The position numbers and the translations under genes are program-made. Positions 44,391-57,131 of a stretch of DNA of 64,000 bases are shown here, one piece after another. The DNA is taken from contig CANQWE010000001.1 of assembly GCA_947627475.1 (NCBI GenBank), forward strand, positions 7,069-71,068. Reading direction: 5' to 3'. Source of the stretch: an uncultured Clostridia bacterium. GTDB lineage: Bacteria > Bacillota > Clostridia > Oscillospirales > CAG-272. Each line of letters opens with the position of its first letter. Within the stretch, counting starts at the first letter, position 1. The notes beneath the pieces are model-generated. The model saw nothing but the letters and a program-made list of their open reading frames with translations, ran no database searches and was not told where the DNA came from.

Positions 44391-46940
44391 CTAAAAAGCT
44401 GTTTGTGATTTCACTTCATGAAAGCTATCGCCCCATTCGCTGACCGCATAAAATTTATTATTTATGTATAAAAGTGCAGTTTGATTTAAAAACGGATGAC
44501 AGCCACTGTTGTAGGAAGGAATGATTACAGATCGAGTAAATAAATTTCGTAAATACAAAGATTTATCATTTGAATTTATATATAGAATACTCTTTTCATT
44601 ATGCCATGGGTTTGCAATTACCTGCATAATACAGTATTTTCCATTCACTGTTTTTCCCATATAAGTATATCCATTGCCATCCATTTGAATTGGTAATTTG
44701 CTGCGAATATAATGGATTTCTTCACTACCATCGCAGTTGTTGTCTACAATAATCAAGGCATTGTTTTGGTTTTTCTGCATTTCGTCTACAGCAATGACAG
44801 GATAATCTACAAGGATATTCGGATAATCGGTATTTGTTTTCGGATGTGAAAAAGTGTCGCAAACACGTTTTAACATATCGTCCTGCGTGTTACAATTGAC
44901 AATTCTCAAGGCTGTCATATATACATCTAACAAGCCTGTTCCTTTGTAGTGACAAATACTTTTACAAAAGTCTTCTGAAACAATAAATCCCCCTGTAAGT
45001 GTGTTTTTCAATATGACTTCATTGTCATAATATTTTTTAAAAGTCAATTTTTTATCATTTATTAAAATAAAAAAGTTTTCCCTGTCCAGTTGCGGGGGCA
45101 AAATTATTTTCAGCCCAGTGCAGTTTTTTGCTTGAATAATCATATTGTATCCTACAATTTCCAGAGCGACTTCTGCATAGGATGTTCCCTTTAAAATTGA
45201 CTCAATTTCAATATAATAAGCTTTTCTGCAACGATTTCTTTCCGTACGGTAATAAATTATATCAGGGTACGCGTTAAGCTCTTCAGACATAAGTAAATCA
45301 ATGGATCGTTTTGTATATTGTACCCTTTTTAGCTCTATATCCGCATTATAATACTTGTGGACAAAAAGAAAATGCAAATTTCTAAGAGCTTTTTCAAGTT
45401 GTTTTCTTTCCTTTAGAAATGGATCGTTTTCATTAATGGATGCAATCAAATGAAACCAACGAACATTATATAGATTATCTATATTGGGCCGATATGCGTT
45501 TGTCAATCTTGTATAGATACCGGCAAACAAATGCGGAAACGCCTGCACTAAATTTATTAAGGCAATGTTTCCGGCGCAATGGGAAATTGCATAAATCCTT
45601 TTTTTATTGATACGAAACCGATGCAATATGTCTTTGATTTCATTCAGCAAAAATGTTTCACCCATATAACTTCCTAAAGTACACCCCCGGCCTCCTATGT
45701 CGGCGCAAATAACATCATCTCTTTCTGCAAAATGATTGGAATAATTGGACTCCAATATTTCAGGAGGATAATCTGATATATATCCATGAGAAATGGTGAG
45801 CAGGAGTGAATACTCTTTTTCAGGATCAAAATTTTGCGGCAAAACGATATAGTATTGATAAAAATGTTTATCCTCATCGGAATAATAGCAATAAAAATGC
45901 TGTCCGGGGTGATATAAGTACTCCTGGATTTTGTTGTTTTGCACTGCGTAAAGAATCTTTTTTAAATTGCTCCCATAATAAGTATCTGTGTCAACGGTTT
46001 TTAATTTGTCAATATAATAGTGAATTTCATTTTTTATAAGTTCGGGGATATTATTCCTTTTAAGCAGTTCCTTTGCTTGTTCTTGTAGTTCTCTTAAATA
46101 GTCCGGAGCAGCATAGTACCGAAAAAGCGGTATGGATTTACAAGATACCTGTCCGCAAGTGTCTTCTGCATAAAAAAATGCATAGAGCAGATTGTACTTA
46201 TCTTCCTCCATATTAGGCAAAAAGGAAAGATCTATTTTATATTCCTTTTGAAAACTTAACTTTGCTTCAAACAGTATTTTACCGGTTTTTTCGCTTTTTA
46301 TAAGCATCTTGATTTTCGAATTGTAGTCAAAATGGATCAAGTCCAGGGGGATCAGCGAAAATGCAAAGATTTTATCTTCCTGAATAAAAATGGATTGTAC
46401 ATTGATAAGAAAATCCTTTGGTTTAAACCAGTAATTTTGATCCGTCAGAGACAACAGCGAACCGCAGGATTTATTTATGCTTTCTATTCTGACTGTAGGA
46501 ACCGTTTGACAATAGGAAAGCAAAACACCATATTCAATACAAAATATATTATATCCTTTATTCAATGTAACAGTATACAACATGTTTTCATGGCCAATAA
46601 ATACAATTTTTCCGTTGAGCCAATGTCTGAATTTGTCGTTTTTATCTCCTGCTATCCGAGGAAAATATGTGATTTGCGTTTCTTCCTCTGCTTCGACAAT
46701 AAAAAAATGTACATATTTTCTATAAAACCCATGTGGTGTTTCCTCATTTCCTGAAGCGTTGTGTATTTCCGTTTCCATACGGTAGCCTTTACACAAATGC
46801 ATGATATATTCGATTTCAGGAATAGAGTTTTCGTAATAGTTATATTTTGTCCAATCGTACAGCTTTTTGGAAATTACGCCCATTTTATCCGGCATGATCG
46901 CTTTGTCCGTCAGTTTGTATGTAATATCCAGTAATTTCAT
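44391..46940 (-). CDS. Large cytoplasmic protein with central S9/esterase-like alpha/beta-hydrolase domain carrying Cys at the nucleophile elbow
   Basis: YYIVLPQNFDPEKEYSLLLTISHGY, ADIGGRGCTLGS, KKRIYAISHCAGNIALINLVQAFPHLFAGIY (Sm-x-Nu-x-Sm with Cys), downstream ENDPF and a His. ATG 46940 (MKLLDITYKL) is preferred over the track start at 46958. Confidence 0.5.
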   Translation of the reverse strand: MKLLDITYKLTDKAIMPDKMGVISKKLYDWTKYNYYENSIPEIEYIMHLCKGYRMETEIHNASGNEETPHGFYRKYVHFFIVEAEEETQITYFPRIAGDKNDKFRHWLNGKIVFIGHENMLYTVTLNKGYNIFCIEYGVLLSYCQTVPTVRIESINKSCGSLLSLTDQNYWFKPKDFLINVQSIFIQEDKIFAFSLIPLDLIHFDYNSKIKMLIKSEKTGKILFEAKLSFQKEYKIDLSFLPNMEEDKYNLLYAFFYAEDTCGQVSCKSIPLFRYYAAPDYLRELQEQAKELLKRNNIPELIKNEIHYYIDKLKTVDTDTYYGSNLKKILYAVQNNKIQEYLYHPGQHFYCYYSDEDKHFYQYYIVLPQNFDPEKEYSLLLTISHGYISDYPPEILESNYSNHFAERDDVICADIGGRGCTLGSYMGETFLLNEIKDILHRFRINKKRIYAISHCAGNIALINLVQAFPHLFAGIYTRLTNAYRPNIDNLYNVRWFHLIASINENDPFLKERKQLEKALRNLHFLFVHKYYNADIELKRVQYTKRSIDLLMSEELNAYPDIIYYRTERNRCRKAYYIEIESILKGTSYAEVALEIVGYNMIIQAKNCTGLKIILPPQLDRENFFILINDKKLTFKKYYDNEVILKNTLTGGFIVSEDFCKSICHYKGTGLLDVYMTALRIVNCNTQDDMLKRVCDTFSHPKTNTDYPNILVDYPVIAVDEMQKNQNNALIIVDNNCDGSEEIHYIRSKLPIQMDGNGYTYMGKTVNGKYCIMQVIANPWHNEKSILYINSNDKSLYLRNLFTRSVIIPSYNSGCHPFLNQTALLYINNKFYAVSEWGDSFHEVKSQTAF

Positions 46941-47059
46941 TGGTTTTATTCCTTTCAAAAGAATCTGCTTCGGATATTATTCTAAGGGGAAACTTGGGGC
47001 AAGCGCACGACAGCACAGGTCGCGTACTATCTCCCCAGTTTCAAATTTGCTTCGGACAA

Positions 47060-48865
47060 TTACTCTGATACCGGGGGAGCGGCGGCTTCCTGATATTTTT
47101 TTGCCTGGACCCGGAACATTTCAGCGTATTTACCATTCATCCGCATCAATTCTATATGTGCTCCGCATTCGACGATTTCACCGTTTTCCAAAACATATAT
47201 CCTATCCACATCCCGCGTCGTTGAGAGTCGATGGGAAATCGTGATAACCGTCTTTTCCTGTGCAAATGCCTGTACATTTTTGTTGATTTCATATTCAGCA
47301 ACAGGATCCATAGCAGAGGATGGTTCATCCATAATGATGATGTCATATGGACGGACGAGCACCCGCGCTATAGCAAGTTTTTGTGCTTCGCCGCCGGAAA
47401 GATTTATACCTGTATCATCAAATTCTTTGGTCAGTCCGGTTTGTATCCCGCGAGGCAGGTTTTTTAATCTGTCGCTGAATGTACACAATTCCAGCGCCTT
47501 AATAATCGAAGCCTTTTCCTCTCCATCGTAACTGTCGCGCAGGACATTTTCTGCGATGGAAGTGGCAAAGATCTGAAAATCCTGCAGTACCACGCCAAAA
47601 CGGGATTGGTAGGACCTGCATGCATATTTCCTGATATCCATTCCATTATAAAGGATCTTTCCCTCCACCGGGTCATAAAGATGCAGCAACAGCTTAATCA
47701 GGGTGGTTTTGCCTGCGCCGTTATATCCTACCAGCGCGATTTTTTCCCCGCGTTTTATAGAAAAGTCAATATGGCGCAGAACTGGTTTATTTACAGCGTA
47801 ACCAAAAGAGACATTTTGCAGGGTCAGCGACTCGAAGGGCTCTGGCACCATAGCATCCTCCGGGGAGGAGACGGTATACTCCATAAACGCGCGCAGCTTT
47901 TTTATATAAATACCATGCTCCGGAAGCTTTACAAGCTTGTCCACAATATCCTGCAGACACCATCTGAGCGCCCAAAAAGACGACAAGGCCACTGCAAGTC
48001 CAGAAATCGACACGGTATTGGAAATCATAATTTGATACAGCAAAATGATGTAAATAAAAGGTTCCACAGCACTTGTAAGTATTTTGCCTGCCATAACATT
48101 TATGCAGTTTTTTTTCAAATACTTCTCTTCAACCTCCCGAATCTGTTCAAGCGTTTCCCTATGTTTGTCCCAGATCAGTTCGTTTACGTGGCTGATTCTG
48201 ACCTCCTTTGCAGTATCCGGAAGGGAATAGATCCTCTCATAGTAGCTTATTTTCCGATTTTTAGGCGTTGTTTCCAATGCACTTTGTAATTGAATCTTTG
48301 CGCTGGCTTTTTGTATAAACAACGAAAGAATACTTGCGGCGACAGCTGCCAGACTCAGTGCCGGACTGATGGAAAAAAAGAGCGTTACAATCGTAATAAA
48401 ACTCGTAGATGATAAGATAATAGCCGACAAGGTTTCCATAAGCCCAACGGCACGGGTATCACTTTGACTGACAGACCAGACAAAATTGTCATAAAACTCT
48501 GTATCATCGTAACTGGAGATGGGGATGCTTTTGGAGATCTCAAACAGCTCTGTATGCATTCGATATTCCAGTACCTGCCTTTTGCAGCGGCGCGTCACAT
48601 TGTAGTAGTACTGCTTAATGATTTGAAAAATGACAATAAAAGCAAAGATTCCTGCAATGCCCCCAAGAGCAGTGATAAACGACGCGTTGTTATTGATATA
48701 GTCATAAAATACCTTGATGAACAACACCTGAACAGAGTTATTGAGACCCTCCAACACACCGAAAATCAGTTCCCATATGAGCAGTCCGGGAGTGAATTTC
48801 CAAATGAGCCGAAGCATGAACCAGTCGTTTTTCAAGTTTTCCAAACGATCTCGCTTCTTTTTCAA
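47060..48865 (-). CDS. ABC exporter, fused permease/ATPase (heterodimer partner 2)
   Basis: 6 TM N-terminal half. GYNGAGKTTL, LSGGEAQKLAIAR, IIIMDEPSSAMD. ATGA overlap with the upstream ABC gene. No N-terminal peptidase domain. Confidence 0.85.
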   Translation of the reverse strand: MKKKRDRLENLKNDWFMLRLIWKFTPGLLIWELIFGVLEGLNNSVQVLFIKVFYDYINNNASFITALGGIAGIFAFIVIFQIIKQYYYNVTRRCKRQVLEYRMHTELFEISKSIPISSYDDTEFYDNFVWSVSQSDTRAVGLMETLSAIILSSTSFITIVTLFFSISPALSLAAVAASILSLFIQKASAKIQLQSALETTPKNRKISYYERIYSLPDTAKEVRISHVNELIWDKHRETLEQIREVEEKYLKKNCINVMAGKILTSAVEPFIYIILLYQIMISNTVSISGLAVALSSFWALRWCLQDIVDKLVKLPEHGIYIKKLRAFMEYTVSSPEDAMVPEPFESLTLQNVSFGYAVNKPVLRHIDFSIKRGEKIALVGYNGAGKTTLIKLLLHLYDPVEGKILYNGMDIRKYACRSYQSRFGVVLQDFQIFATSIAENVLRDSYDGEEKASIIKALELCTFSDRLKNLPRGIQTGLTKEFDDTGINLSGGEAQKLAIARVLVRPYDIIIMDEPSSAMDPVAEYEINKNVQAFAQEKTVITISHRLSTTRDVDRIYVLENGEIVECGAHIELMRMNGKYAEMFRVQAKKYQEAAAPPVSE

Positions 48866-50673
48866 GTGTCATCGCCCCCTTTGATATAGTTTTCTGCCTG
48901 GATACGAAACAACTTTGCATATTCTCCGTTTTTGTCCATGAGTTCCTTGTGATTGCCGGATTCTAAGATCCGTCCGTTTTCCAGCAAATAAATCCTGTCT
49001 GCCAATGTTGCGGAGGACAAACGGTGTGAAATCAGGATCATGGTGCGATTGCGGCAGGCTTTGATCATATTTTCGTACATTTCATACTCTGCGATGGGAT
49101 CTAAGGCAGAGGAAGGCTCGTCCAATATAACAACAGGGCAATCCTTTGCATACACATGGGAAATCGCCAGCTTCTGATTTTGACCTCCGGACAGGATTTC
49201 CCCCTCATTGTCAAATTCACGGTCGAGCACTGTATGTATGCCGGATGGCATTTGCCTGACACGATTATACAATCCGCTTTTTTGCAGCGCGTCAATTACG
49301 ATCGGATCGTCATCGTCCTGCGGCCGCCTAAGCAGTACATTTTCCTTGACAGTCATGGAGAAGTGGCGATAATCCTGCAGCACGGTAGCAAAAAGATCAT
49401 GGTATGTAGACAAACGATACTTCTTAATATCCCTGCCGTTGAGTTCAATGACGCCTTCTGACGGATCATATAAACGGAGAAGCAGTTTGATCAGCGTAGT
49501 TTTTCCCGCTCCGTTGTGCCCTACGATCGCAATCTTTTCTCCCTCGCGGATACGGAGAGAAATATCCTTTAGTATGTATTCGTTGTGTTCTCCATGATAT
49601 TTAAAGGAGACATGCTTGAGCGAAATATCCCCGGCCTTTGCAGAGGGTGCTTCCATATCTTCTCGGATCCCCTGCTGATACTCCATAAATTGTCTTAAAT
49701 TATTTATATACAGAGAATGCGAATACATTTGTGCGATGCTGGCATTCAGAGTGTCAATGCTTGCGCTTACCCGCGCCACTGTATTGATCAGCACAAGACA
49801 GTCTCCATAAAGCATTCGTTTTGTTCCCAGCGTTTGCCATGCAGCATACGCAAACAGAAGAGAATGAGATAAAAAGGTACTGGCAACAATGATCAGCAAC
49901 TCCCAGAAAGCCAGACGTACGCCCTTGGAACGATATATGCGAATAATTTCATCGGCTGCCTCTTTGTACTGCCTTAAAATGACCTTAGAAATATTAGACA
50001 GGCGCAATTCGGCTGCGTAATCCCGTAGATAAAATGTTCTTACAGTATATTGCTTTTTTCGCTCGGCACTTGTTTTGGATTGGTCCAAGTCAAAACTCAA
50101 ATAGTTTTTTTTCTTCCGGATTTTATTTACAAGAAAGGGGAAAAAAGCAAATATCAGTACCAGCGGATCGATCAGGCACGCAAGGATGCCGCTCCCCACC
50201 AAGGAAATTCCGGCGTTGATGACCGTAATGGAACTATTGAATACTGCGTCTACACGACCGGAGCATTCGGCCATCGCACGGGTATATGTATTATAATACT
50301 CCGGGTCCTCGTAGCAAAACAGCTCACATTCAGCCATCTTTTTCAGGGACATTGTTTTCATTTTGCGATGGATCGTATATGTAAAATACGGCTGTAGCTT
50401 GACATCCACGCAGGATGTCACGATGTGATAAACCACATAAATCAAAAACAGGATACACAGAAACTTGACAGCGTCAAAATAATTTCCGCCGGTTTGTGCG
50501 ATGTTTACCGCATAGCGAAGGAAATACAGGTTGACCAGACCCAGCAAAGTATCAAGAACTGTAATAAGCGTCGTATATAATATTTTCCACGGACACGCCT
50601 TCCATAAAAGCCTCAGCATATAAAAATTGTTGGACAGCGCCTTCAGAAAGGACTCTTTGTTTTTCTTTTTCAT
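48862..50673 (-). CDS. ABC exporter, fused permease/ATPase (heterodimer partner 1)
   Basis: GHNGAGKTTL, LSGGQNQKLAISH, VVILDEPSSALD. Start ATG 50673 (MKKKNKE) or GTG 50685. Confidence 0.85.
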   Translation of the reverse strand: MKKKNKESFLKALSNNFYMLRLLWKACPWKILYTTLITVLDTLLGLVNLYFLRYAVNIAQTGGNYFDAVKFLCILFLIYVVYHIVTSCVDVKLQPYFTYTIHRKMKTMSLKKMAECELFCYEDPEYYNTYTRAMAECSGRVDAVFNSSITVINAGISLVGSGILACLIDPLVLIFAFFPFLVNKIRKKKNYLSFDLDQSKTSAERKKQYTVRTFYLRDYAAELRLSNISKVILRQYKEAADEIIRIYRSKGVRLAFWELLIIVASTFLSHSLLFAYAAWQTLGTKRMLYGDCLVLINTVARVSASIDTLNASIAQMYSHSLYINNLRQFMEYQQGIREDMEAPSAKAGDISLKHVSFKYHGEHNEYILKDISLRIREGEKIAIVGHNGAGKTTLIKLLLRLYDPSEGVIELNGRDIKKYRLSTYHDLFATVLQDYRHFSMTVKENVLLRRPQDDDDPIVIDALQKSGLYNRVRQMPSGIHTVLDREFDNEGEILSGGQNQKLAISHVYAKDCPVVILDEPSSALDPIAEYEMYENMIKACRNRTMILISHRLSSATLADRIYLLENGRILESGNHKELMDKNGEYAKLFRIQAENYIKGGDDT

Positions 50674-50771
50674 AGACGTCCCCACTTCTCAGATTTTTCT
50701 ATAATTTCCCCGTAAAAATGATTTTTGTAAGCCAATATTAATAAAAATTTATATTGATTCAGGTGGCAGGA

Positions 50772-51590
50772 TCATTTATAGTCGTCACTATAGGCGATCC
50801 AGCGTCGCGGCAGTTTGAATCCGCCTCCGGTTTGTAATTCCATATTATTCAGCAATATGGAATTACAGCACCCCAAAGTATAAATATGCAGTATATCACC
50901 CTGAAAAGCGGTACAGACAGGGGGCAGCGCCTCATATGGCTCCATAGAGAAATACGAAAATTTCAGACCGGCGGTTTGCTGGATCCTGCAGTGATACCGT
51001 GCAAAATTTAAAAGCATTTTAGTCATAAAACAAATTCCAGTATAAAGCTGTGCAGAACAGTATTCCTTAATGTCTCCGTTTTCAATCGGCACATATGGTG
51101 CATTTGTATGTATCTGTGTGGTCAGATCAATAATATAATAATGCTGATTGGTATATATGTAGTTCATGGTATGCCCCGACCCATCCGGACGGATATATTG
51201 GATATATCCCCTGTCGGGATAACGATTCTGAATAACATAGTTGAACCACGCAGCCGCGGATGCACAGCACCCCTCTCCGGTTTCCACAGCATATTTACCG
51301 GATTTGTGCATCTCCCAGGTTCTCTCGCCCGCTTGAAAATAAACGATATCGTTTGTTTCTTCAAACAGGCGAACACACTGAAACAGTTGGATCGCTTCAT
51401 ATGCATTGAATCCCAGCGACCGTATTTTATCCGCCGGTTTTCGCGCAGTCAATGCATATATTTCCTCGTTTGTAAAACGGCTGCTTCCCAAAACATTCAC
51501 GGGGACCCAAAACAAATCTTTTGCAATTTGTGTTTTAAAATCTGCCCCATGCCGCAAATTGATGGTATCATACGAAGTGTGAAGGTACAT
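50772..51590 (-). CDS. Hypothetical Cys-His-Asp protein, transglutaminase/papain-like fold (peptidase or acyltransferase)
   Basis: GEGCCASAAAWFNYV ... GSGHTMNYIYTNQHYYIIDLT has the spacing of a transglutaminase-core C...H...D triad. AGGGAGGG SD before ATG 51590; alternative ATG 51611 abuts the upstream stop. Confidence 0.45.
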   Translation of the reverse strand: MYLHTSYDTINLRHGADFKTQIAKDLFWVPVNVLGSSRFTNEEIYALTARKPADKIRSLGFNAYEAIQLFQCVRLFEETNDIVYFQAGERTWEMHKSGKYAVETGEGCCASAAAWFNYVIQNRYPDRGYIQYIRPDGSGHTMNYIYTNQHYYIIDLTTQIHTNAPYVPIENGDIKEYCSAQLYTGICFMTKMLLNFARYHCRIQQTAGLKFSYFSMEPYEALPPVCTAFQGDILHIYTLGCCNSILLNNMELQTGGGFKLPRRWIAYSDDYK

Positions 51591-51611
51591 AAGCCCTCCC
51601 TTTCTGTACAT

Positions 51612-53420
51612 TTAATCACAGAAAAAGTTGATACAATCTTCAAAAAGGCGCCGGTCATCGTCATCATTGCCCAAAATATAAGCTGGCTTTCCGGTCGCTC
51701 CGGTAACCGTCTTACAAAACCTTTTCAGATCGGATGCGGGTATTTCTTTTTTTACCATGCTCATCGCGCTCCATTCATTTGGAAATCCTATCGGAAACAC
51801 TTCGAATGCAATAACATGGCAATCTGCCAGGGATTCCACAAAAGCGGCCGATCTTTTGATCATATCTATAGAATCGTGGGGATTGATGCAAAGTATTGCC
51901 GCGTCAGGATTTGCTCCAAGCAAAAACTCCGTGGAAGCGATGTTATAGGTAGACAAATTGTCAAAGGAAAGGGTAGCGACGCCGGATTGCGCACCTGCCA
52001 AAATGATATCCGGTTCTTGGATATCCAGCTGATGCATCAAATAATTTACGTGTTCAATGCCAAAATGTCCACTTATATCCACCGTTCCGTCATAGCCGTA
52101 TGGATAAACGGCCTCCATGCCGAAAAGGCCGCCTTCCGGCTCACTGGACAGTTGACCAATTTCGTAACCGTTTTCCAAAAATAATTCTCTCAGTTTCAGC
52201 TGTAAGGAAAACTTCCCCTGTTGGCTGGAGGTTCCTACAACAGCCAGTACTGGAGAAAACACCTCATATAATTTCCCAAATTTATTAGAGGACTGTTGGG
52301 TTCGGTTTATAACGGGAACATAAATTTTCTTTTTCCTTTCAGCAGATAATGCACTTACATAATCGGTATCAAAGGATACAATGTTGATATTGTTTTTTAT
52401 ACATGCATCTATTATCCTCTGCTTATAATCAACAAAAACCTTTATAGACAATTCATTTACATGTCCGATAATAAAAGTGTCTATTCCCTCCAAATCGATA
52501 TTTTCAATATTTTCAATCGTACAGCACAGATCCCTGCGACTGTTAAATACCGTCTTTCCCACATGTCCAGAGAATCTGCTGTCATAAAGCCGTTCAATCG
52601 TAAACGGCAGCAAATGCGCAAATCGAATCAGGCTTTGCGTTTCTTTGTTGTAAGGAAAAACGGCGGCCATACGGATGTCAAACAGATCTGTTTTATATTC
52701 CGGACTTTTGTCATTAAAAGATACAACCTTGCTTGCATTTTCTTTTAATACCGGCAAAATGTTTTTATAATCTACTCCATGATCAAGCAACGTGCAGATT
52801 TTTGCTGTCAAAACAGGCGCCACAAAACTGTTTCCCCTCACTATAGCATACTCTGGACCCGTCCAGGCTACTCTTTGAGGAGATGCCATCATTCCAATAT
52901 TTATTAGGCTATTTTCCACATAGATATATTCCTGAAAGCTATTTAGCTGCATTGTAGAATCAACGCCGATTACACAAGGATAAGCAGCAGGATAAGAAAT
53001 GGCTCCCATATTGCAAAACGCTGAAACGATCATGACTCCGCTACGGTAAAGCTGATCGCATATTTCCTCAAGTTCAGGCAAATGCTTTCGAATGCCGGCG
53101 CTAATATTTATAATCTGACAAGCGAGCGAATCATTGTGGGTATAAATATATCGCAGCGCGTCAATCAACACCTCCGGTTCAGCCTCCTCATTGCTCCCTT
53201 CTATAATTTTGAAAGAGGTGATTTTAACATTTTTTTCATTTTTATATAAAACATGAGCAACAGCTGTTCCGTGACCATTTTGTATATTGTTCTGCCGCGT
53301 TACCTGCCAGCCTGTGCCATCATCAAGATAGGAATATTCCGTTATATCTGCATTGGATAGCCCTTTATGCTGCGTATCTACACCTGAATCCAGGATTGCC
53401 ACATGAACGATATTTTTCAT
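51612..53420 (-). CDS. Cytoplasmic S8 subtilisin-like peptidase fused to a C-terminal P-loop (DUF1611-like / 'peptide maturation system' type) domain
   Basis: VAILDSGVD (Asp), NGHGTAVAHV (His), NISAG (oxyanion Asn), GNSFVAPVLTA (Ser). No signal peptide. The C-terminal half has VLAVVGTSSQQGKFSLQLKL, which is P-loop-like. Confidence 0.7.
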   Translation of the reverse strand: MKNIVHVAILDSGVDTQHKGLSNADITEYSYLDDGTGWQVTRQNNIQNGHGTAVAHVLYKNEKNVKITSFKIIEGSNEEAEPEVLIDALRYIYTHNDSLACQIINISAGIRKHLPELEEICDQLYRSGVMIVSAFCNMGAISYPAAYPCVIGVDSTMQLNSFQEYIYVENSLINIGMMASPQRVAWTGPEYAIVRGNSFVAPVLTAKICTLLDHGVDYKNILPVLKENASKVVSFNDKSPEYKTDLFDIRMAAVFPYNKETQSLIRFAHLLPFTIERLYDSRFSGHVGKTVFNSRRDLCCTIENIENIDLEGIDTFIIGHVNELSIKVFVDYKQRIIDACIKNNINIVSFDTDYVSALSAERKKKIYVPVINRTQQSSNKFGKLYEVFSPVLAVVGTSSQQGKFSLQLKLRELFLENGYEIGQLSSEPEGGLFGMEAVYPYGYDGTVDISGHFGIEHVNYLMHQLDIQEPDIILAGAQSGVATLSFDNLSTYNIASTEFLLGANPDAAILCINPHDSIDMIKRSAAFVESLADCHVIAFEVFPIGFPNEWSAMSMVKKEIPASDLKRFCKTVTGATGKPAYILGNDDDDRRLFEDCINFFCD

Positions 53421-53448
53421 AAAGCTTGCCTCTTTAATTGTTTGTATG

Positions 53449-53493
53449 TTTTTTTGAACAGTGAAAGGATTCCCCTTTCACTGTTCAAAAAAA
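53449..53493 (-). promoter_or_regulatory. Perfect 20-bp stem-loop immediately downstream of the candidate precursor ORF (partial terminator / mRNA stabiliser)
   Basis: tttttttgaacagtgaaagg-attcc-cctttcactgttcaaaaaaa. It begins 3 nt after the precursor stop codon. There is no 3' U-tract on the operon strand. Confidence 0.6.
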
Positions 53494-53495
53494 CA

Positions 53496-53606
53496 TTACC
53501 ACTTAAGCCCGCACATAGCGAAACTTGCTATACCTGAACAAGATTCAAAGCTGTAGGTCATTACCTTTACACGCTTGGCGCATGGCTTTCTAAGCTGCTT
53601 TTTCAT
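53496..53606 (-). CDS. Candidate RiPP precursor peptide (36 aa): MKKQLRKPCAKRVKVMTYSFESCSGIASFAMCGLKW
   Basis: Near-perfect SD AAGGAGGTGA 7 nt before ATG 53606. It has 3 Cys and a basic N-terminus, sits between the ACP-like and protease genes, and has hairpins on both sides. The same frame is open up to ATG 53744 (82 aa, ATGA overlap with the upstream gene), so the start is ambiguous. Confidence 0.55.
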   Translation of the reverse strand: MKKQLRKPCAKRVKVMTYSFESCSGIASFAMCGLKW

Positions 53607-53740
53607 GATTTCACCTCCTTTTATGTAATTATAAGAAGGGTGCAATGCCGCTGCATAGCCATTTAAATGGAGTACGAACGCATACGCAGCCCCTTCAAAT
53701 GGCCTTGCGGCATTTTCCCCGTCTTTACACAGCAAAGCGA

Positions 53741-53986: not shown

Positions 53987-55306
53987 CTACAATTCTATAA
54001 AACTATCTTTATTCATTTTATATAGAACTTTTAACACATCATTTAAATATGCATATTCACGACCGCAATTCAACTGCGCCGGATCCATGGGATTTTTATT
54101 GAAAAACAAGAGATTGCGTACACAGCTTTTTCCCTTGCAGATAGAATAGTCGGTACAACTTTTGCATCCCTCAATTGCCTTCGCGGACAAGGAATACCAG
54201 TAAGCGGCCTTGTACTCATCTATTTCCAGCTTTCCATTTATTAGTTTACCGATAGGATATTCCTGCAGCTGGGGACACAAAAATACATCTCCCAGAGTGT
54301 TTACCGTATATGTGTTTTTTTGTGCATATGAGCAAATTGCGTGAGACAGCTGTCCTTGCAAGGCACTCATATTCAGCTGCCAGTCTCCTTCTGCTAATGT
54401 CGCATAGACGTCTGACATAGAATCGATTAGCTTTCCACGCATTGCATTTATGCGGTCGCCTCCCCAATCGTAAACCGGACTGAATAGATAGGTAAAGCGG
54501 TTGTCTTTTCCAAACTCCTCCTGCACAAACGACAAATAGTCATGTAAGTTCTCTAAGACATCTGTCGTTATATTGGTCCGCAGTACGATGCGAAATTGCT
54601 GAGATTTTACATGATCACGGATACAGCGCAGATTTTCAATGATTTTATGGAATGTTCCCCCACCGTTTTTCAGCGGCCTGCTAACGTTATGCGTTTTTGC
54701 AGTTCCGTCAATCGTTATAATATACTCAAAAACTCTATACCGCAAAAGCCTTTTAAATGTTTCGTAGTCCAGCAGATAACCGTTTGTGGTAATAGAGGCA
54801 GAATACCGCCTCGATGTTTTTCTGCAGATATCGATAAATGCCTCAGATAAGGTATACAACGAATCCCTTGCTAAAAGAGGCTCTCCCCCAAACCAGGCAA
54901 CATTCATTTCGGTATATTGGCCGATGTTCCTTTTGGCATACGTAATGAGGTCCTGTATAACACTTTCTTTTATATGGGATCTTTGAAAGTCGTCAAAACA
55001 ATACTGACAACCAAAATTGCAGCTTTCTGACGTCAATATTGTAAAATGCAGCGAACTGCTATTGATGATTTTTTCATGTAAATCATCCCCTTGTATGCTT
55101 TCGTCTATAGAAGCGGGCACTACAAATCCATGGTCCCTTAACCTGCCCATCATTTTTTCCGGAACTGTATCAATACTAAGCGGTAAATTGCGAAGGGATA
55201 TTGGCTGCAAATATCCCATTGTATTTCGCAGCTTATTATAAAGCAAAAGCGTTTCCGTTTTGTCTATGTATGTGTAGTGATTAAACTTTGAAAACTTCAA
55301 TTCCAT
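53987..55306 (-). CDS. Radical SAM / SPASM-domain peptide maturase
   Basis: SESCNFGCQYCF (CX3CX2C). The C-terminus has CSYAQKNTYTVNTLGDVFLC (CX13GX4C), CKSCTDYSICKGKSC and a further Cys, consistent with auxiliary Fe-S clusters. Confidence 0.85.
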   Translation of the reverse strand: MELKFSKFNHYTYIDKTETLLLYNKLRNTMGYLQPISLRNLPLSIDTVPEKMMGRLRDHGFVVPASIDESIQGDDLHEKIINSSSLHFTILTSESCNFGCQYCFDDFQRSHIKESVIQDLITYAKRNIGQYTEMNVAWFGGEPLLARDSLYTLSEAFIDICRKTSRRYSASITTNGYLLDYETFKRLLRYRVFEYIITIDGTAKTHNVSRPLKNGGGTFHKIIENLRCIRDHVKSQQFRIVLRTNITTDVLENLHDYLSFVQEEFGKDNRFTYLFSPVYDWGGDRINAMRGKLIDSMSDVYATLAEGDWQLNMSALQGQLSHAICSYAQKNTYTVNTLGDVFLCPQLQEYPIGKLINGKLEIDEYKAAYWYSLSAKAIEGCKSCTDYSICKGKSCVRNLLFFNKNPMDPAQLNCGREYAYLNDVLKVLYKMNKDSFIEL

Positions 55307-55307
55307 T

Positions 55308-56849
55308 TTATCGCCTGCCCGTTTTATTTGCCAAATACTGCAAATATCTTTTATCCTTGGACAATTTCCTCATGACAACCTGTATATCGCTGTAACACTT
55401 TCGGATAAGTGGATTATATTTCTTCATTATTTTATGTACGTCGGTTTCTGTAAAAATCAGTTCAAAAAACATTTCAAATTTTATATCGCGTAAATCTTTT
55501 ATAATGGGCCGGGTTGCTTTCTGAAAGTTGTGGACCGCCCCCTCGTCATACACATTCATTACACTCAAAAAACAAGATCGAAAATCAAGATATATTGCTT
55601 CTTCCGTGTAATACTGGGATAACCGGTTTGCCGCGCCAAGTCTTTCAGCAATATGACCAGCATCCGGATGCAAATAATTGTAGTCAAAGGTGTTCAGGTA
55701 AGAAAAGGTATCCTTTAGCAGTCCCATGTTTTCTGTTCTGGTATACATTTCGGAGCCATAATTGACTGAAAGCCGTGTATTAAAATGGTAATCGTAGAAG
55801 AAACCATACTTTTTTGAAAATGTATAATTTGTTTGAATGGATTCTACCGTGCTAAGCGGATTCAAGTTTATAAATCCACAATCGATATAAAAATCATTCT
55901 TTAAAAGCAGTTCTAAAGTCGCAATATTCTCATCCTTTGAAACACGTTTGTTATAATAAATCAAATCATTGTCATCAAAAGACTCGATTCCCAGCAGTAC
56001 AAATAAAAATCCCGATTCTTTCATTTTTTTGAGCAAGGGCTGATCTTTCTCCGTAAAGCCTTTTACTCTCGTATTAAAATTTATCGTAAATTTTTGTGGA
56101 TACTGTAATAATAAATCACAAAACGCATCGATTCGTTGTTTCCCGATAGTACCTGGGCTTTCAAATGCACTATCATTTATTAGGAAAGCAATAATTCCAT
56201 ATCGTTCATACGTATGGACTATTTCTTCAAAAACATCTTGTATATTTCTCCCACGCCATACGATCCTCTTTTTGTTCAGACAATAATTTTGGGTACAAAA
56301 ATGGCACCGGCCTATACAGCCCCGCGCTGCTTCTATTTTAACAATTGGCAGATTTTTGAGGTATTTGTCTTGCAGCAATACATGATCCACCACATGGTAA
56401 TGTTTCATGTTGAAAACATATTGCTTTTTTAGGGACAAATCATCGCCATTTCTGTATATATAATTTCCATTTTCTATACCACCTAAATAATCTATGATTG
56501 GTATTTCATAATCCCCCAAAACAATAAAATCGATTTCCGGACAATCTTCCAATATTTTTTCTGCACACAATGTTGCAAAAGAACCTACGAGAAAAACTTT
56601 GATTTTTTTCTCAATATTTTTGATTTTTCTTACCAGTGAATAGATAAACGGAACGGTCGCTGCGTCAGAATTAAAACATAAATGGGAATACTTGCAGAAA
56701 TCTTCAATAGCAATGCTGCCTTCATGGTCAAATGCTGCGTTCAGAGACACAATATGAACAGTACATATTTCTGTCAACATGGAATACAAATGCTCCAGAT
56801 GAACATCCTCTTTTATAACTTTGTTATAAACGTTTGCCAATAATACCAT
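55308..56849 (-). CDS. B12-binding-domain radical SAM enzyme (class B, methyltransferase-like)
   Basis: The N-terminal Rossmann-like segment KVFLVGSFATLCAEKILEDCPEIDFIVLGDYEIPIIDYL, then EAARGCIGRCHFCTQ (CX3CX2C). Confidence 0.8.
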   Translation of the reverse strand: MVLLANVYNKVIKEDVHLEHLYSMLTEICTVHIVSLNAAFDHEGSIAIEDFCKYSHLCFNSDAATVPFIYSLVRKIKNIEKKIKVFLVGSFATLCAEKILEDCPEIDFIVLGDYEIPIIDYLGGIENGNYIYRNGDDLSLKKQYVFNMKHYHVVDHVLLQDKYLKNLPIVKIEAARGCIGRCHFCTQNYCLNKKRIVWRGRNIQDVFEEIVHTYERYGIIAFLINDSAFESPGTIGKQRIDAFCDLLLQYPQKFTINFNTRVKGFTEKDQPLLKKMKESGFLFVLLGIESFDDNDLIYYNKRVSKDENIATLELLLKNDFYIDCGFINLNPLSTVESIQTNYTFSKKYGFFYDYHFNTRLSVNYGSEMYTRTENMGLLKDTFSYLNTFDYNYLHPDAGHIAERLGAANRLSQYYTEEAIYLDFRSCFLSVMNVYDEGAVHNFQKATRPIIKDLRDIKFEMFFELIFTETDVHKIMKKYNPLIRKCYSDIQVVMRKLSKDKRYLQYLANKTGRR

Positions 56850-57102: not shown

Positions 57103-57131
57103 ATTTTAACATTCTCTGTTTTAATTGTCAA
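57103..57131 (-). promoter_or_regulatory. Sigma-A type promoter of the peptide-maturation operon
   Basis: Minus strand TTGACA (57131-57126), 17 nt, TAAAAT (57108-57103). It lies ~250 nt upstream of the first gene. Confidence 0.5.

Follow-up and report, generated by a model that had tools for sequence, protein, structure and literature searches.

The window analysed here, a stretch of 64,000 nucleotides of contig CANQWE010000001.1 from an uncultured Clostridia bacterium, carries on its minus strand an operon for a modified peptide, and directly behind the subtilase gene of this operon lies an open reading frame (ORF), 50772..51611, whose product contains three short motifs around a cysteine, a histidine and an aspartate. 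The question that this locus raises is why a peptide cluster with an S8 protease of its own should encode another enzyme of this type, and whether that enzyme cuts the peptide or transfers an acyl group to it from the acyl carrier protein (ACP)-like product of the same operon; a first-pass annotation posed the choice between a second protease and an ACP-dependent acyltransferase as a question and leaned towards acylation or isopeptide macrocyclisation. We call the protein TGL, for transglutaminase-like protein. The answer that emerges is that one clade of TGL proteins is a fixed part of a rare peptide cluster with two radical S-adenosylmethionine (SAM) enzymes, which spreads between gut Clostridia as a low-GC island, and that TGL may be a peptidase making a second cut in the cluster peptide.

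Fold and catalytic triad of TGL

The minus-strand ORF of 279 amino acids (aa) is confirmed. Translation probably begins at the ATG at 51590 rather than at 51611, because this codon is preceded by a strong Shine-Dalgarno (SD) sequence, AGGGAGGG, a database protein identical to the window protein (P0001) is 272 aa long and the homologues begin at the same place, and the product of 50772..51590 would then have 272 aa. The name TGL refers to this product, and residue numbers follow the 279-aa ORF throughout. The motifs GEGCCASAAAWFNYV (residues 112-126), GSGHTMNYIY (144-153) and YYIIDLT (158-164) stand in the order given by the first-pass annotation, with 31-32 residues from Cys to His, not about 34 as it had estimated, and 15 residues from His to Asp. 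The protein has no signal peptide and is therefore predicted to be cytoplasmic and soluble.

Triad conservation was counted over 169 domain copies, taken from 160 proteins: C116 persists in 161/169 copies, H147 in 158/169 and D162 in 159/169, and all three are invariant in the six sequences of the cluster clade described below. This family-wide conservation places the Cys-His-Asp motif far beyond chance. The first cysteine of the "CC" pair, C115, is kept in only 114 of the 169 copies and is elsewhere replaced by N, D, G or S, so that the second one, C116, is the predicted nucleophile.

Two AlphaFold2 (AF2) models of TGL were built, one with 10 homologues (mean predicted local distance difference test score, pLDDT, 87.1; predicted template modelling score, pTM, 0.88) and one with 74 homologues (pLDDT 95.9, pTM 0.93). 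Both contain an alpha/beta core with the nucleophile Cys at a helix N-terminus on an antiparallel sheet: a helix opens with C116, a beta-strand with H147, and D162 comes directly after the next antiparallel strand. In the models, the secondary-structure register of the three residues thus corresponds to the canonical arrangement of a catalytic triad. When TGL was compared by VIA-align with 48,161 representative chains, the CPR-C4 protease came first (Z 9.2, 153 residues aligned, root-mean-square deviation 4.2), followed by vasohibin (Z 7.5), by BDI_1141, TglA and LapG (6.8 each) and by PeiW (6.2), while animal transglutaminases (5.6-5.8), protein-glutaminase (5.3) and arylamine N-acetyltransferases (NATs; about 5) ranked lower. 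A fold search with the better model gave the same ranking (CPR-C4 9.1-9.4, vasohibins 7.2-7.8, LapG 6.6-7.0, NATs and the amide synthase GdmF 5.1-5.3), and in all four fold searches the top rows were members of the transglutaminase-like/papain clan, the best Z being 9.4. Foldseek, used with either model, likewise returned almost only transglutaminase-like cysteine enzymes in its top rows; its best E was 6e-3 and neither model gave a match at E ≤ 0.001, so that it is the consistent ranking together with the VIA-align Z values that carries the assignment.

The window TGL matches no Pfam family at E up to 0.1 and no NCBIfam model, it does not reach the gathering threshold of Transglut_core (PF01841) or DUF553 (PF04473), and PDB sequence searches with the TGL sequence and two family profiles returned nothing real (no match, no match and one LRR protein at E 7.5). 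DUF553 is matched by 2 of 10 close homologues (best E 0.025). Three multi-copy relatives have weak DUF553 and Gln_amidase matches exactly over their C...H...D core, and among all of these only one, the distant three-domain P0011, passes the DUF553 threshold (34.8 bits against 20.5). In the ESM Atlas, Transglut_core is found in 27 of the 30 clusters nearest to TGL. Since the AF2 models, the fold searches, the triad conservation, the weak DUF553/Gln_amidase matches over the core and the ESM Atlas neighbours agree, TGL is predicted to be a transglutaminase-like/papain-clan cysteine enzyme. Both structure prediction and the homologues thus bear out the assignment that the first-pass annotation had made from the motifs.

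An exhaustive profile search found 486 representative proteins of this family with E ≤ 1e-3, and 158 with E ≤ 1e-30. Neither the fold nor the chemistry is new. The family itself is curated nowhere among the databases searched; no paper on it, or on a gene of this type in radical SAM peptide clusters, was found in open-access full text. The analysis therefore gives a fold and a triad to a family of at least 486 representative clusters (50% identity) that had no curated model, name or structure. An N-terminal signal- or lipoprotein-like hydrophobic segment is present in 55 of 61 members longer than 330 aa and in none of 88 members of up to 300 aa, which suggests that the long members are secreted and wall-anchored and that the short ones, the window TGL included, are cytoplasmic. 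A Pfam scan of 50 long members gave matches for 14 and none for 36; the modules found include SLH, CWB2, choline-binding repeats, Big_2/Big_4, LRR_5 with CARDB, and C-type lectin. At the cell surface an enzyme domain cannot rely on acyl-ACP or acyl-CoA, which points to amide-bond hydrolysis or transpeptidation as the chemistry of the family.

Two further observations concern relatives of TGL. Secreted relatives P0011 (965 aa), P0013 and P0016 have two or three tandem copies of the domain, and the middle copy of P0011, which lacks both Cys and His, is probably a non-catalytic binding module. There is also a second recurrent context for the family, next to a methyltransferase gene: at L004:1865-4316 and L042:2145-4521 a methyltransferase, a TGL homologue and a NUDIX hydrolase stand in a row, at L032:7592-9477 the methyltransferase-TGL pair is present and the NUDIX gene was not found, and in L032 and L042 a BTAD/TPR regulator lies upstream of the pair.

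Linkage of TGL to clusters with a B12-binding radical SAM enzyme

Three complete clusters were found, those of the window, of Fumia xinanensis (L001) and of a Gallintestinimicrobium-like contig (L018). The gene order is the same in all of them: a B12-binding radical SAM enzyme, a SPASM radical SAM enzyme, the ACP-like protein, the precursor peptide, a subtilase fused to a TIGR04066-like domain (S8-TIGR04066), TGL and ATP-binding cassette (ABC) exporters. In 3 of 3 clusters TGL thus stands between the S8-TIGR04066 gene, which it directly follows, and the ABC genes, a small sample in which it is a component of the B12-binding radical SAM subtype at one and the same position. The ABC genes directly follow TGL also in L077. 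The TGL proteins of L001 and L018 are 47% and 41% identical to that of the window, and the three clusters sit in different bacterial families of gut bacteria.

Outside these clusters, TGL and the S8-TIGR04066 protein keep apart. Among 401 genomes sampled from the bacterial family of the window, the S8-TIGR04066 protein is present in 28 (the window's own genome counted) and TGL in 7; the only genome with both is the window's own, TGL being missing from the remaining 27 genomes with S8-TIGR04066, and S8-TIGR04066 from the remaining 6 with TGL. No TGL was found at any of the 29 other S8-TIGR04066 loci searched with 1.5-kb flanks, nor at any of 20 wider loci (about 9-kb flanks, 14 genomes of the same bacterial family). 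Those 20 loci contain a SPASM gene in 16 cases and an ACP-like gene in 8, and the B12-binding radical SAM enzyme, found in 3/3 TGL clusters, is represented among them by one weak match. Because 0/20 and 0/29 S8-TIGR04066 loci hold TGL, it is not part of the core S8-TIGR04066/SPASM/ACP-like system; its presence and absence follow those of the B12 enzyme.

In a FastTree phylogeny of 198 rows, all TGLs linked to clusters fall into one clade. Shimodaira-Hasegawa (SH)-like support is 96 for the group of the window protein, P0002, P0003, L001 and P0005, and 97 for a 15-row clade that includes all Gallintestinimicrobium-type rows. An order-level search gave a match at E up to 1e-20 in 1 of 400 other genomes and no further cluster.

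The Gallintestinimicrobium-type loci L002, L016, L017 and L018 have flanks that are 98-99.9% identical and belong to one species. In L018, the B12-binding radical SAM, SPASM, ACP-like, 36-aa precursor and S8-TIGR04066 genes lie between a full-length agrB and TGL. Relative to L018, L002 and L017 lack 5,770 bp (L018:3217-8986) and L016 lacks a different 4,534 bp, keeping only a C-terminal remnant of the TIGR04066 domain. Both deletions removed the radical SAM genes, the precursor and most or all of S8-TIGR04066, and both spared TGL, the next gene, of 342 aa, and the ABC genes. The L002 junction links agrB, at about its codon 108, with a position 14 nt ahead of the TGL start, which preserves the SD sequence of TGL and creates a 379-aa AgrB'-TGL reading frame, so that in this strain (Gallintestinimicrobium propionicum) a LytTR regulator, a histidine kinase and AgrD (TIGR04223, 22 bits with the cut-off at 19) precede an ORF made of the N-terminal half of agrB and TGL. 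We had considered these loci as a separate agr-type context with an AgrB-TGL fusion and rejected the idea, as L018 holds the full cluster between agrB and TGL; because L002/L017 and L016 are deletion derivatives of an L018-type cluster, what looked like a fusion is the scar of a deletion.

Directly upstream of the peptide cluster, at L018:573-3472, lies an agr-type module complete with LytTR regulator, histidine kinase, AgrD and AgrB, and the module is seen also at L002, L016 and L017. The predicted ring residues of its AgrD, C-L-G-R-Y, resemble the invariant C-G-L-[K/R]-W end of the cluster precursors, possibly by chance. Four metagenome contigs, L019-L022, carry an intact TGL ORF, with G-D-C in place of G-C-C, beside a LytTR regulator, joined in L021 and L022 by a kinase; none of the four has any biosynthetic gene left, and the ABC genes near TGL in L019 look fragmented.

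What TGL may do to the cluster peptide

The precursors of clusters with and without TGL have a leader start, MKKL[IV]KP, in common and differ in their cores. Cores of the clusters without TGL are long and rich in Cys, Asn and Gly; that of the three TGL clusters is short, has two invariant Cys and follows the pattern M-x-Y-S-[FL]...C-S...F..C-G-L-[KR]-W, so that each of the three ends in C-G-L-[K/R]-W with five residues from Cys to the C-terminus. All 6/6 aligned homologues of the subtilase keep its S8 triad D11/H50/S198 unchanged and, together with the leader start common to TGL-less clusters, this implies that the leader step already has a competent enzyme, as the first-pass annotation had supposed.

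The reading that we tentatively favour, plausible though short of probable, is that TGL acts as a cysteine peptidase specific to the subtype and cuts the modified peptide a second time; it is the protease half of the initial alternative that comes out ahead. A second cut is the most likely task because S8 and the leader are common to the wider system and TGL occurs only, and always, with the B12-binding radical SAM enzyme and the CGL[K/R]W core. H147, oriented by D162, would activate C116, which would attack the peptide of the cluster itself at an amide carbonyl, giving an acyl-enzyme thioester that water then resolves. TGL would thus be the tailoring peptidase of the B12-binding radical SAM subtype, distinct from the general leader peptidase, and its cut, preceding export by the ABC transporters, would trim either residues left after the S8 cut or the C-terminus. 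What the analysis shows is the fold class, the conservation of the triad, the linkage of the genes and the cytoplasmic location; that the reaction is hydrolysis, that the precursor is cut and where the cut falls are inferred. Proteases of the transglutaminase-like C96 type act in lasso peptide pathways, and two-step proteolysis is described for several pathways to peptides that are synthesized ribosomally and modified post-translationally (RiPPs) in the review PMC10885120.

Several points weigh against this reading. The complete clusters number only three, and the link to the B12 enzyme comes from few independent events. The triad geometry is derived from the secondary-structure register of AF2 models, the Foldseek E-values are all weak, Z exceeds 8 only for CPR-C4, and the transglutaminase fold also hosts transamidases, deamidases and acyltransferases, which structure cannot separate from proteases. 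No member of the family has a known activity, substrate or product. Standalone relatives outside the cluster clade adjoin unrelated genes (GNAT, NUDIX, HAD, methyltransferases, sugar enzymes) and lack peptide genes in their surroundings, which means that the family as a whole is not peptide-specific. Finally, the two deletions that kept TGL and the exporters fit an immunity role at least as well as one in maturation.

In such a role, TGL would be a self-immunity or resistance peptidase that, with the ABC transporters, destroys or trims the mature peptide in, or re-entering, the cytoplasm. We regard this as rather unlikely but as a serious rival. In its favour are the two deletions, of 5,770 bp and 4,534 bp, which arose independently, lost the biosynthetic genes and left TGL and the ABC genes intact, the L002 junction that stops short of the SD sequence of TGL, the intact TGL ORFs beside a LytTR regulator on the biosynthesis-free contigs L019-L022 and the ABC genes that directly follow TGL in L077. 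Yet TGL is tightly coupled to the S8-TIGR04066 gene and not placed in a separate immunity operon, the 20 TGL-less clusters manage without such a protein, and the deletions may be recent and neutral, as there were two events and the three contigs are strains of one species. It is also possible that TGL is a general cytoplasmic amidase or deamidase that acts on a cellular substrate and merely travels with the island. Most standalone relatives do lack peptide genes nearby, some relatives have weak Gln_amidase matches, and NTAQ1 and protein-glutaminase are found at Z 5.3-5.5; the position kept across three clusters from different bacterial families at 41-47% identity, and the grouping of the cluster-linked copies in one clade, make a bystander of this sort very doubtful.

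The remaining alternatives assign TGL a reaction other than hydrolysis. NAT-fold enzymes pass an acyl group from acyl-CoA to an amine, and C116 might similarly take an acyl or aminoacyl group from the phosphopantetheinylated ACP-like protein and hand it to a peptide amine. All 3/3 TGL clusters have an ACP-like gene whose product keeps an invariant Ser, NATs and GdmF have the same fold (Z 5.1-5.3) and TGL is predicted to be cytoplasmic. On the other hand, the ACP-like gene belongs to the core system and is found in 8 of 20 loci without TGL, so that the adjacent ACP-related gene, which the first-pass annotation had drawn on for this proposal, turned out not to depend on TGL. Around family members elsewhere than in the three clusters, a single carrier gene was seen, a PP-binding gene at a distance of about 2.2 kb in L082, and the many secreted relatives have no access to acyl-ACP. 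None of 10 members matched BtrH_N or a NAT family, TGL is structurally closer to proteases, and, as the core has no conserved Lys, a new N-terminus would be the only acceptor left. BtrH_N, moreover, lies in a different branch of the papain enzymes (PMC10318531). Acyl transfer is, on this balance, improbable.

Ring closure, in which the acyl-enzyme is captured by a peptide Cys thiol or by the N-terminal amine, is a reaction that we consider more doubtful than acyl transfer. Cys-His-Asp acyl-enzyme chemistry permits it, AgrB, sortases and butelase-type enzymes perform ring-forming capture of this kind, the five residues from Cys to the C-terminus in the C-G-L-[K/R]-W end equal the ring size of AgrD-type autoinducers, and the L018 cluster adjoins a complete agr-type module. 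But the segment from Cys to the end is already C-terminal, with no follower peptide to pay for ring closure, and the TGL family offers no precedent. As to the isopeptide macrocycle that the first-pass annotation had raised, neither a conserved acyl-donor Gln nor a conserved acceptor Lys was found across the three precursors: that of Fumia has no Gln, the window and L018 precursors have a single Gln at different, non-aligned positions, and the only K/R position of the core holds K in the window peptide and R in those of Fumia and L018, so that Gln-Lys transamidation within the peptide is unlikely. A bolder variant, to which we give a slim chance, is that TGL and the B12-binding radical SAM enzyme define a new RiPP subclass in which TGL does more than hydrolyse, closing or opening a ring on C-G-L-[K/R]-W or moving a group from the ACP-like protein. 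Its product may be a signal and not an antibiotic. One lineage has the cluster fused to an entire agr-type module of sensor, regulator and autoinducer, the core of which, C-L-G-R-Y, resembles the peptide tail.

The operon of the window and its place among known systems

The operon lies in a stretch of 14 kb with 34-43% G+C in a region of about 50-55% G+C, with all genes on the minus strand (Table 1). The S8-TIGR04066 gene ends 21 nt before the TGL start, and its product has NCBIfam matches to QhpE-like (1.2e-26) and TIGR04066 (8.2e-21), both below the curated cut-offs. Ser37 of the ACP-like protein is invariant across 5 aligned homologues. A long inverted repeat, at about 53449-53493, follows the precursor gene. 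The promoter-like site, about 250 nt upstream of the B12-binding radical SAM gene, may drive the whole operon; it is a consensus match only, and the count of such sites is not above that in shuffled sequences.

Table 1. Coordinates of TGL, its predicted catalytic codons and the surrounding features of the window
Feature	Position	Strand	Evidence
TGL coding sequence (probable start)	50772..51590	-	ORF, SD + ATG, identical P0001, homologue starts, AF2 models
C116 codon, predicted catalytic nucleophile, second Cys of GCC	51264..51266	-	161/169 copies; helix N-terminus in both models
H147 codon, predicted general base, beta-strand start	51171..51173	-	158/169 copies; AF2 secondary structure
D162 codon, predicted third triad residue, directly after next antiparallel strand	51126..51128	-	159/169 copies; AF2
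S8 subtilase fused to TIGR04066/DUF1611-like domain	51612..53420	-	Pfam Peptidase_S8 1.3e-13, DUF1611 3.2e-8
Precursor peptide gene, 36 aa	53496..53606	-	SD + ATG; conserved in Fumia (33 aa) and L018 (36 aa)
ACP-like protein, 81 aa	53741..53986	-	PP-binding 0.0021, TIGR04069 1.9e-5, both below cut-off
Radical SAM/SPASM peptide maturase	53987..55306	-	Radical_SAM 4.8e-15; TIGR04463-like 1.3e-51, below cut-off
B12-binding radical SAM enzyme	55308..56849	-	Pfam B12-binding 1.6e-6, Radical_SAM 2.6e-5
Promoter-like site TTGACA-17-TAAAAT, extended TG, upstream of operon	57103..57131	-	11/12 consensus match
Two ABC exporter genes, directly downstream of TGL	48862-50685 and 47060-48865	-	ABC_tran 1e-29, 2e-30
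855-aa ORF, 3' end of low-GC island	44391-46958	-	ORF

In one RNA-seq library, a 186-nt contig exactly matches the precursor gene (window 53491-53676), the neighbouring genes being uncovered; none of the contigs from RNA libraries covers TGL. The 186-nt contig would agree with a precursor transcript that is short and abundant and stops at the inverted repeat, though it may also come from carry-over of DNA. Near-identical sequence to window positions 50700-53700 (64-94% of sampled words) is present in 17 public runs, mostly labelled gut metagenome, and 10 studies hold this stretch at least partly, from which it follows that the island circulates in animal guts. The 855-aa ORF has no Pfam or NCBIfam match; its nearest ESM Atlas clusters are Peptidase_S9/Esterase alpha/beta-hydrolases (score 0.98), and it has S-H-C-A-G at the expected place of the nucleophile elbow. 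It is absent from the Fumia and L018 clusters, and fragments of a homologue lie near the S8-TIGR04066 locus in L103.

If the favoured reading of TGL as a second peptidase is true, TGL would be a second, unrelated transglutaminase-fold RiPP protease and would widen the toolbox of RiPP proteases: where the protease review PMC10885120 treats RiPP maturation, it names no enzyme of this fold apart from those of lasso peptides. TGL also offers a clean genetic handle on the cluster product, through clusters with and without TGL or a C116A variant, and the long-unexplained ACP-like protein of TIGR04065-TIGR04069 systems loses one candidate partner.

Among characterized enzymes, the best structural matches of TGL are CPR-C4 (PDB 7OB6/7PJO), a cysteine protease by experiment (PMC9108980), and the vasohibins (VASH1/2), described as peptide C-terminal carboxypeptidases (PDB titles; PMC10318531). 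About 140-154 residues are aligned, and in these enzymes, as in TGL, the Cys stands at a helix start and the His on the following sheet. They have no detectable sequence similarity to TGL and a different biology, the third triad position is a Leu carbonyl or Ser in place of the conserved Asp (PMC9108980, PMC10318531), and they lack both the N-terminal D-T-x-N-L-R...W-V-P segment conserved in the TGL family and its C-terminal beta domain. LapG (C93) and PeiW/PeiP (C71), bacterial and archaeal proteases of transglutaminase-like type, belong to the same fold cluster (Z 6.1-7.0) and have a triad of the Cys-His-Asp type, and their targets, surface proteins and wall isopeptide bonds, match the secreted, wall-anchored relatives of TGL; TGL itself has no Pfam match to them, is predicted to be cytoplasmic and lies in a peptide gene cluster.

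By analogy, TGL would most likely work like the B proteases of lasso peptides (McjB, MEROPS C96, Pfam Transglut_core3), which are the established cutters of RiPP precursors with a transglutaminase fold and a Cys-His-Asp triad (PMC10885120). Neither TGL nor any of the 9 operon proteins has a Pfam or NCBIfam match to the lasso B protease family, no lasso cyclase gene was found in the operon, and, unlike lasso systems, the operon also has an S8 protease and its cross-links come from radical SAM enzymes. BtrH, whose catalytic domain belongs to the papain superfamily and takes its acyl group from acyl-ACP, is further removed, as BtrH_N groups with C39/C70 peptidases outside the transglutaminase cluster (PMC10318531), and it gave no match, even at E up to 10, for the window TGL or any of 10 homologues. 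The dedicated carrier partner of BtrH also has no counterpart here, since the ACP-like gene, present in 3/3 TGL clusters, is found in 8/20 loci without TGL as well.

The operon as a whole is a distant relative of the TIGR04065-TIGR04069 "Cys-rich peptide maturation system" (CcpM type), represented by the SacP23 cluster of Paenibacillus polymyxa (PMC10731318). Common to both are a SPASM radical SAM enzyme, a TIGR04066-like domain, an ACP-related protein, a subtilase and an ABC exporter (PMC10731318), and the matches of the window operon to the TIGR04065-TIGR04069 models are all far below the curated cut-offs. The gene list given for the system in PMC10731318 includes no transglutaminase-like gene, and TGL and the B12-binding radical SAM enzyme are additions specific to the subtype found in the window.

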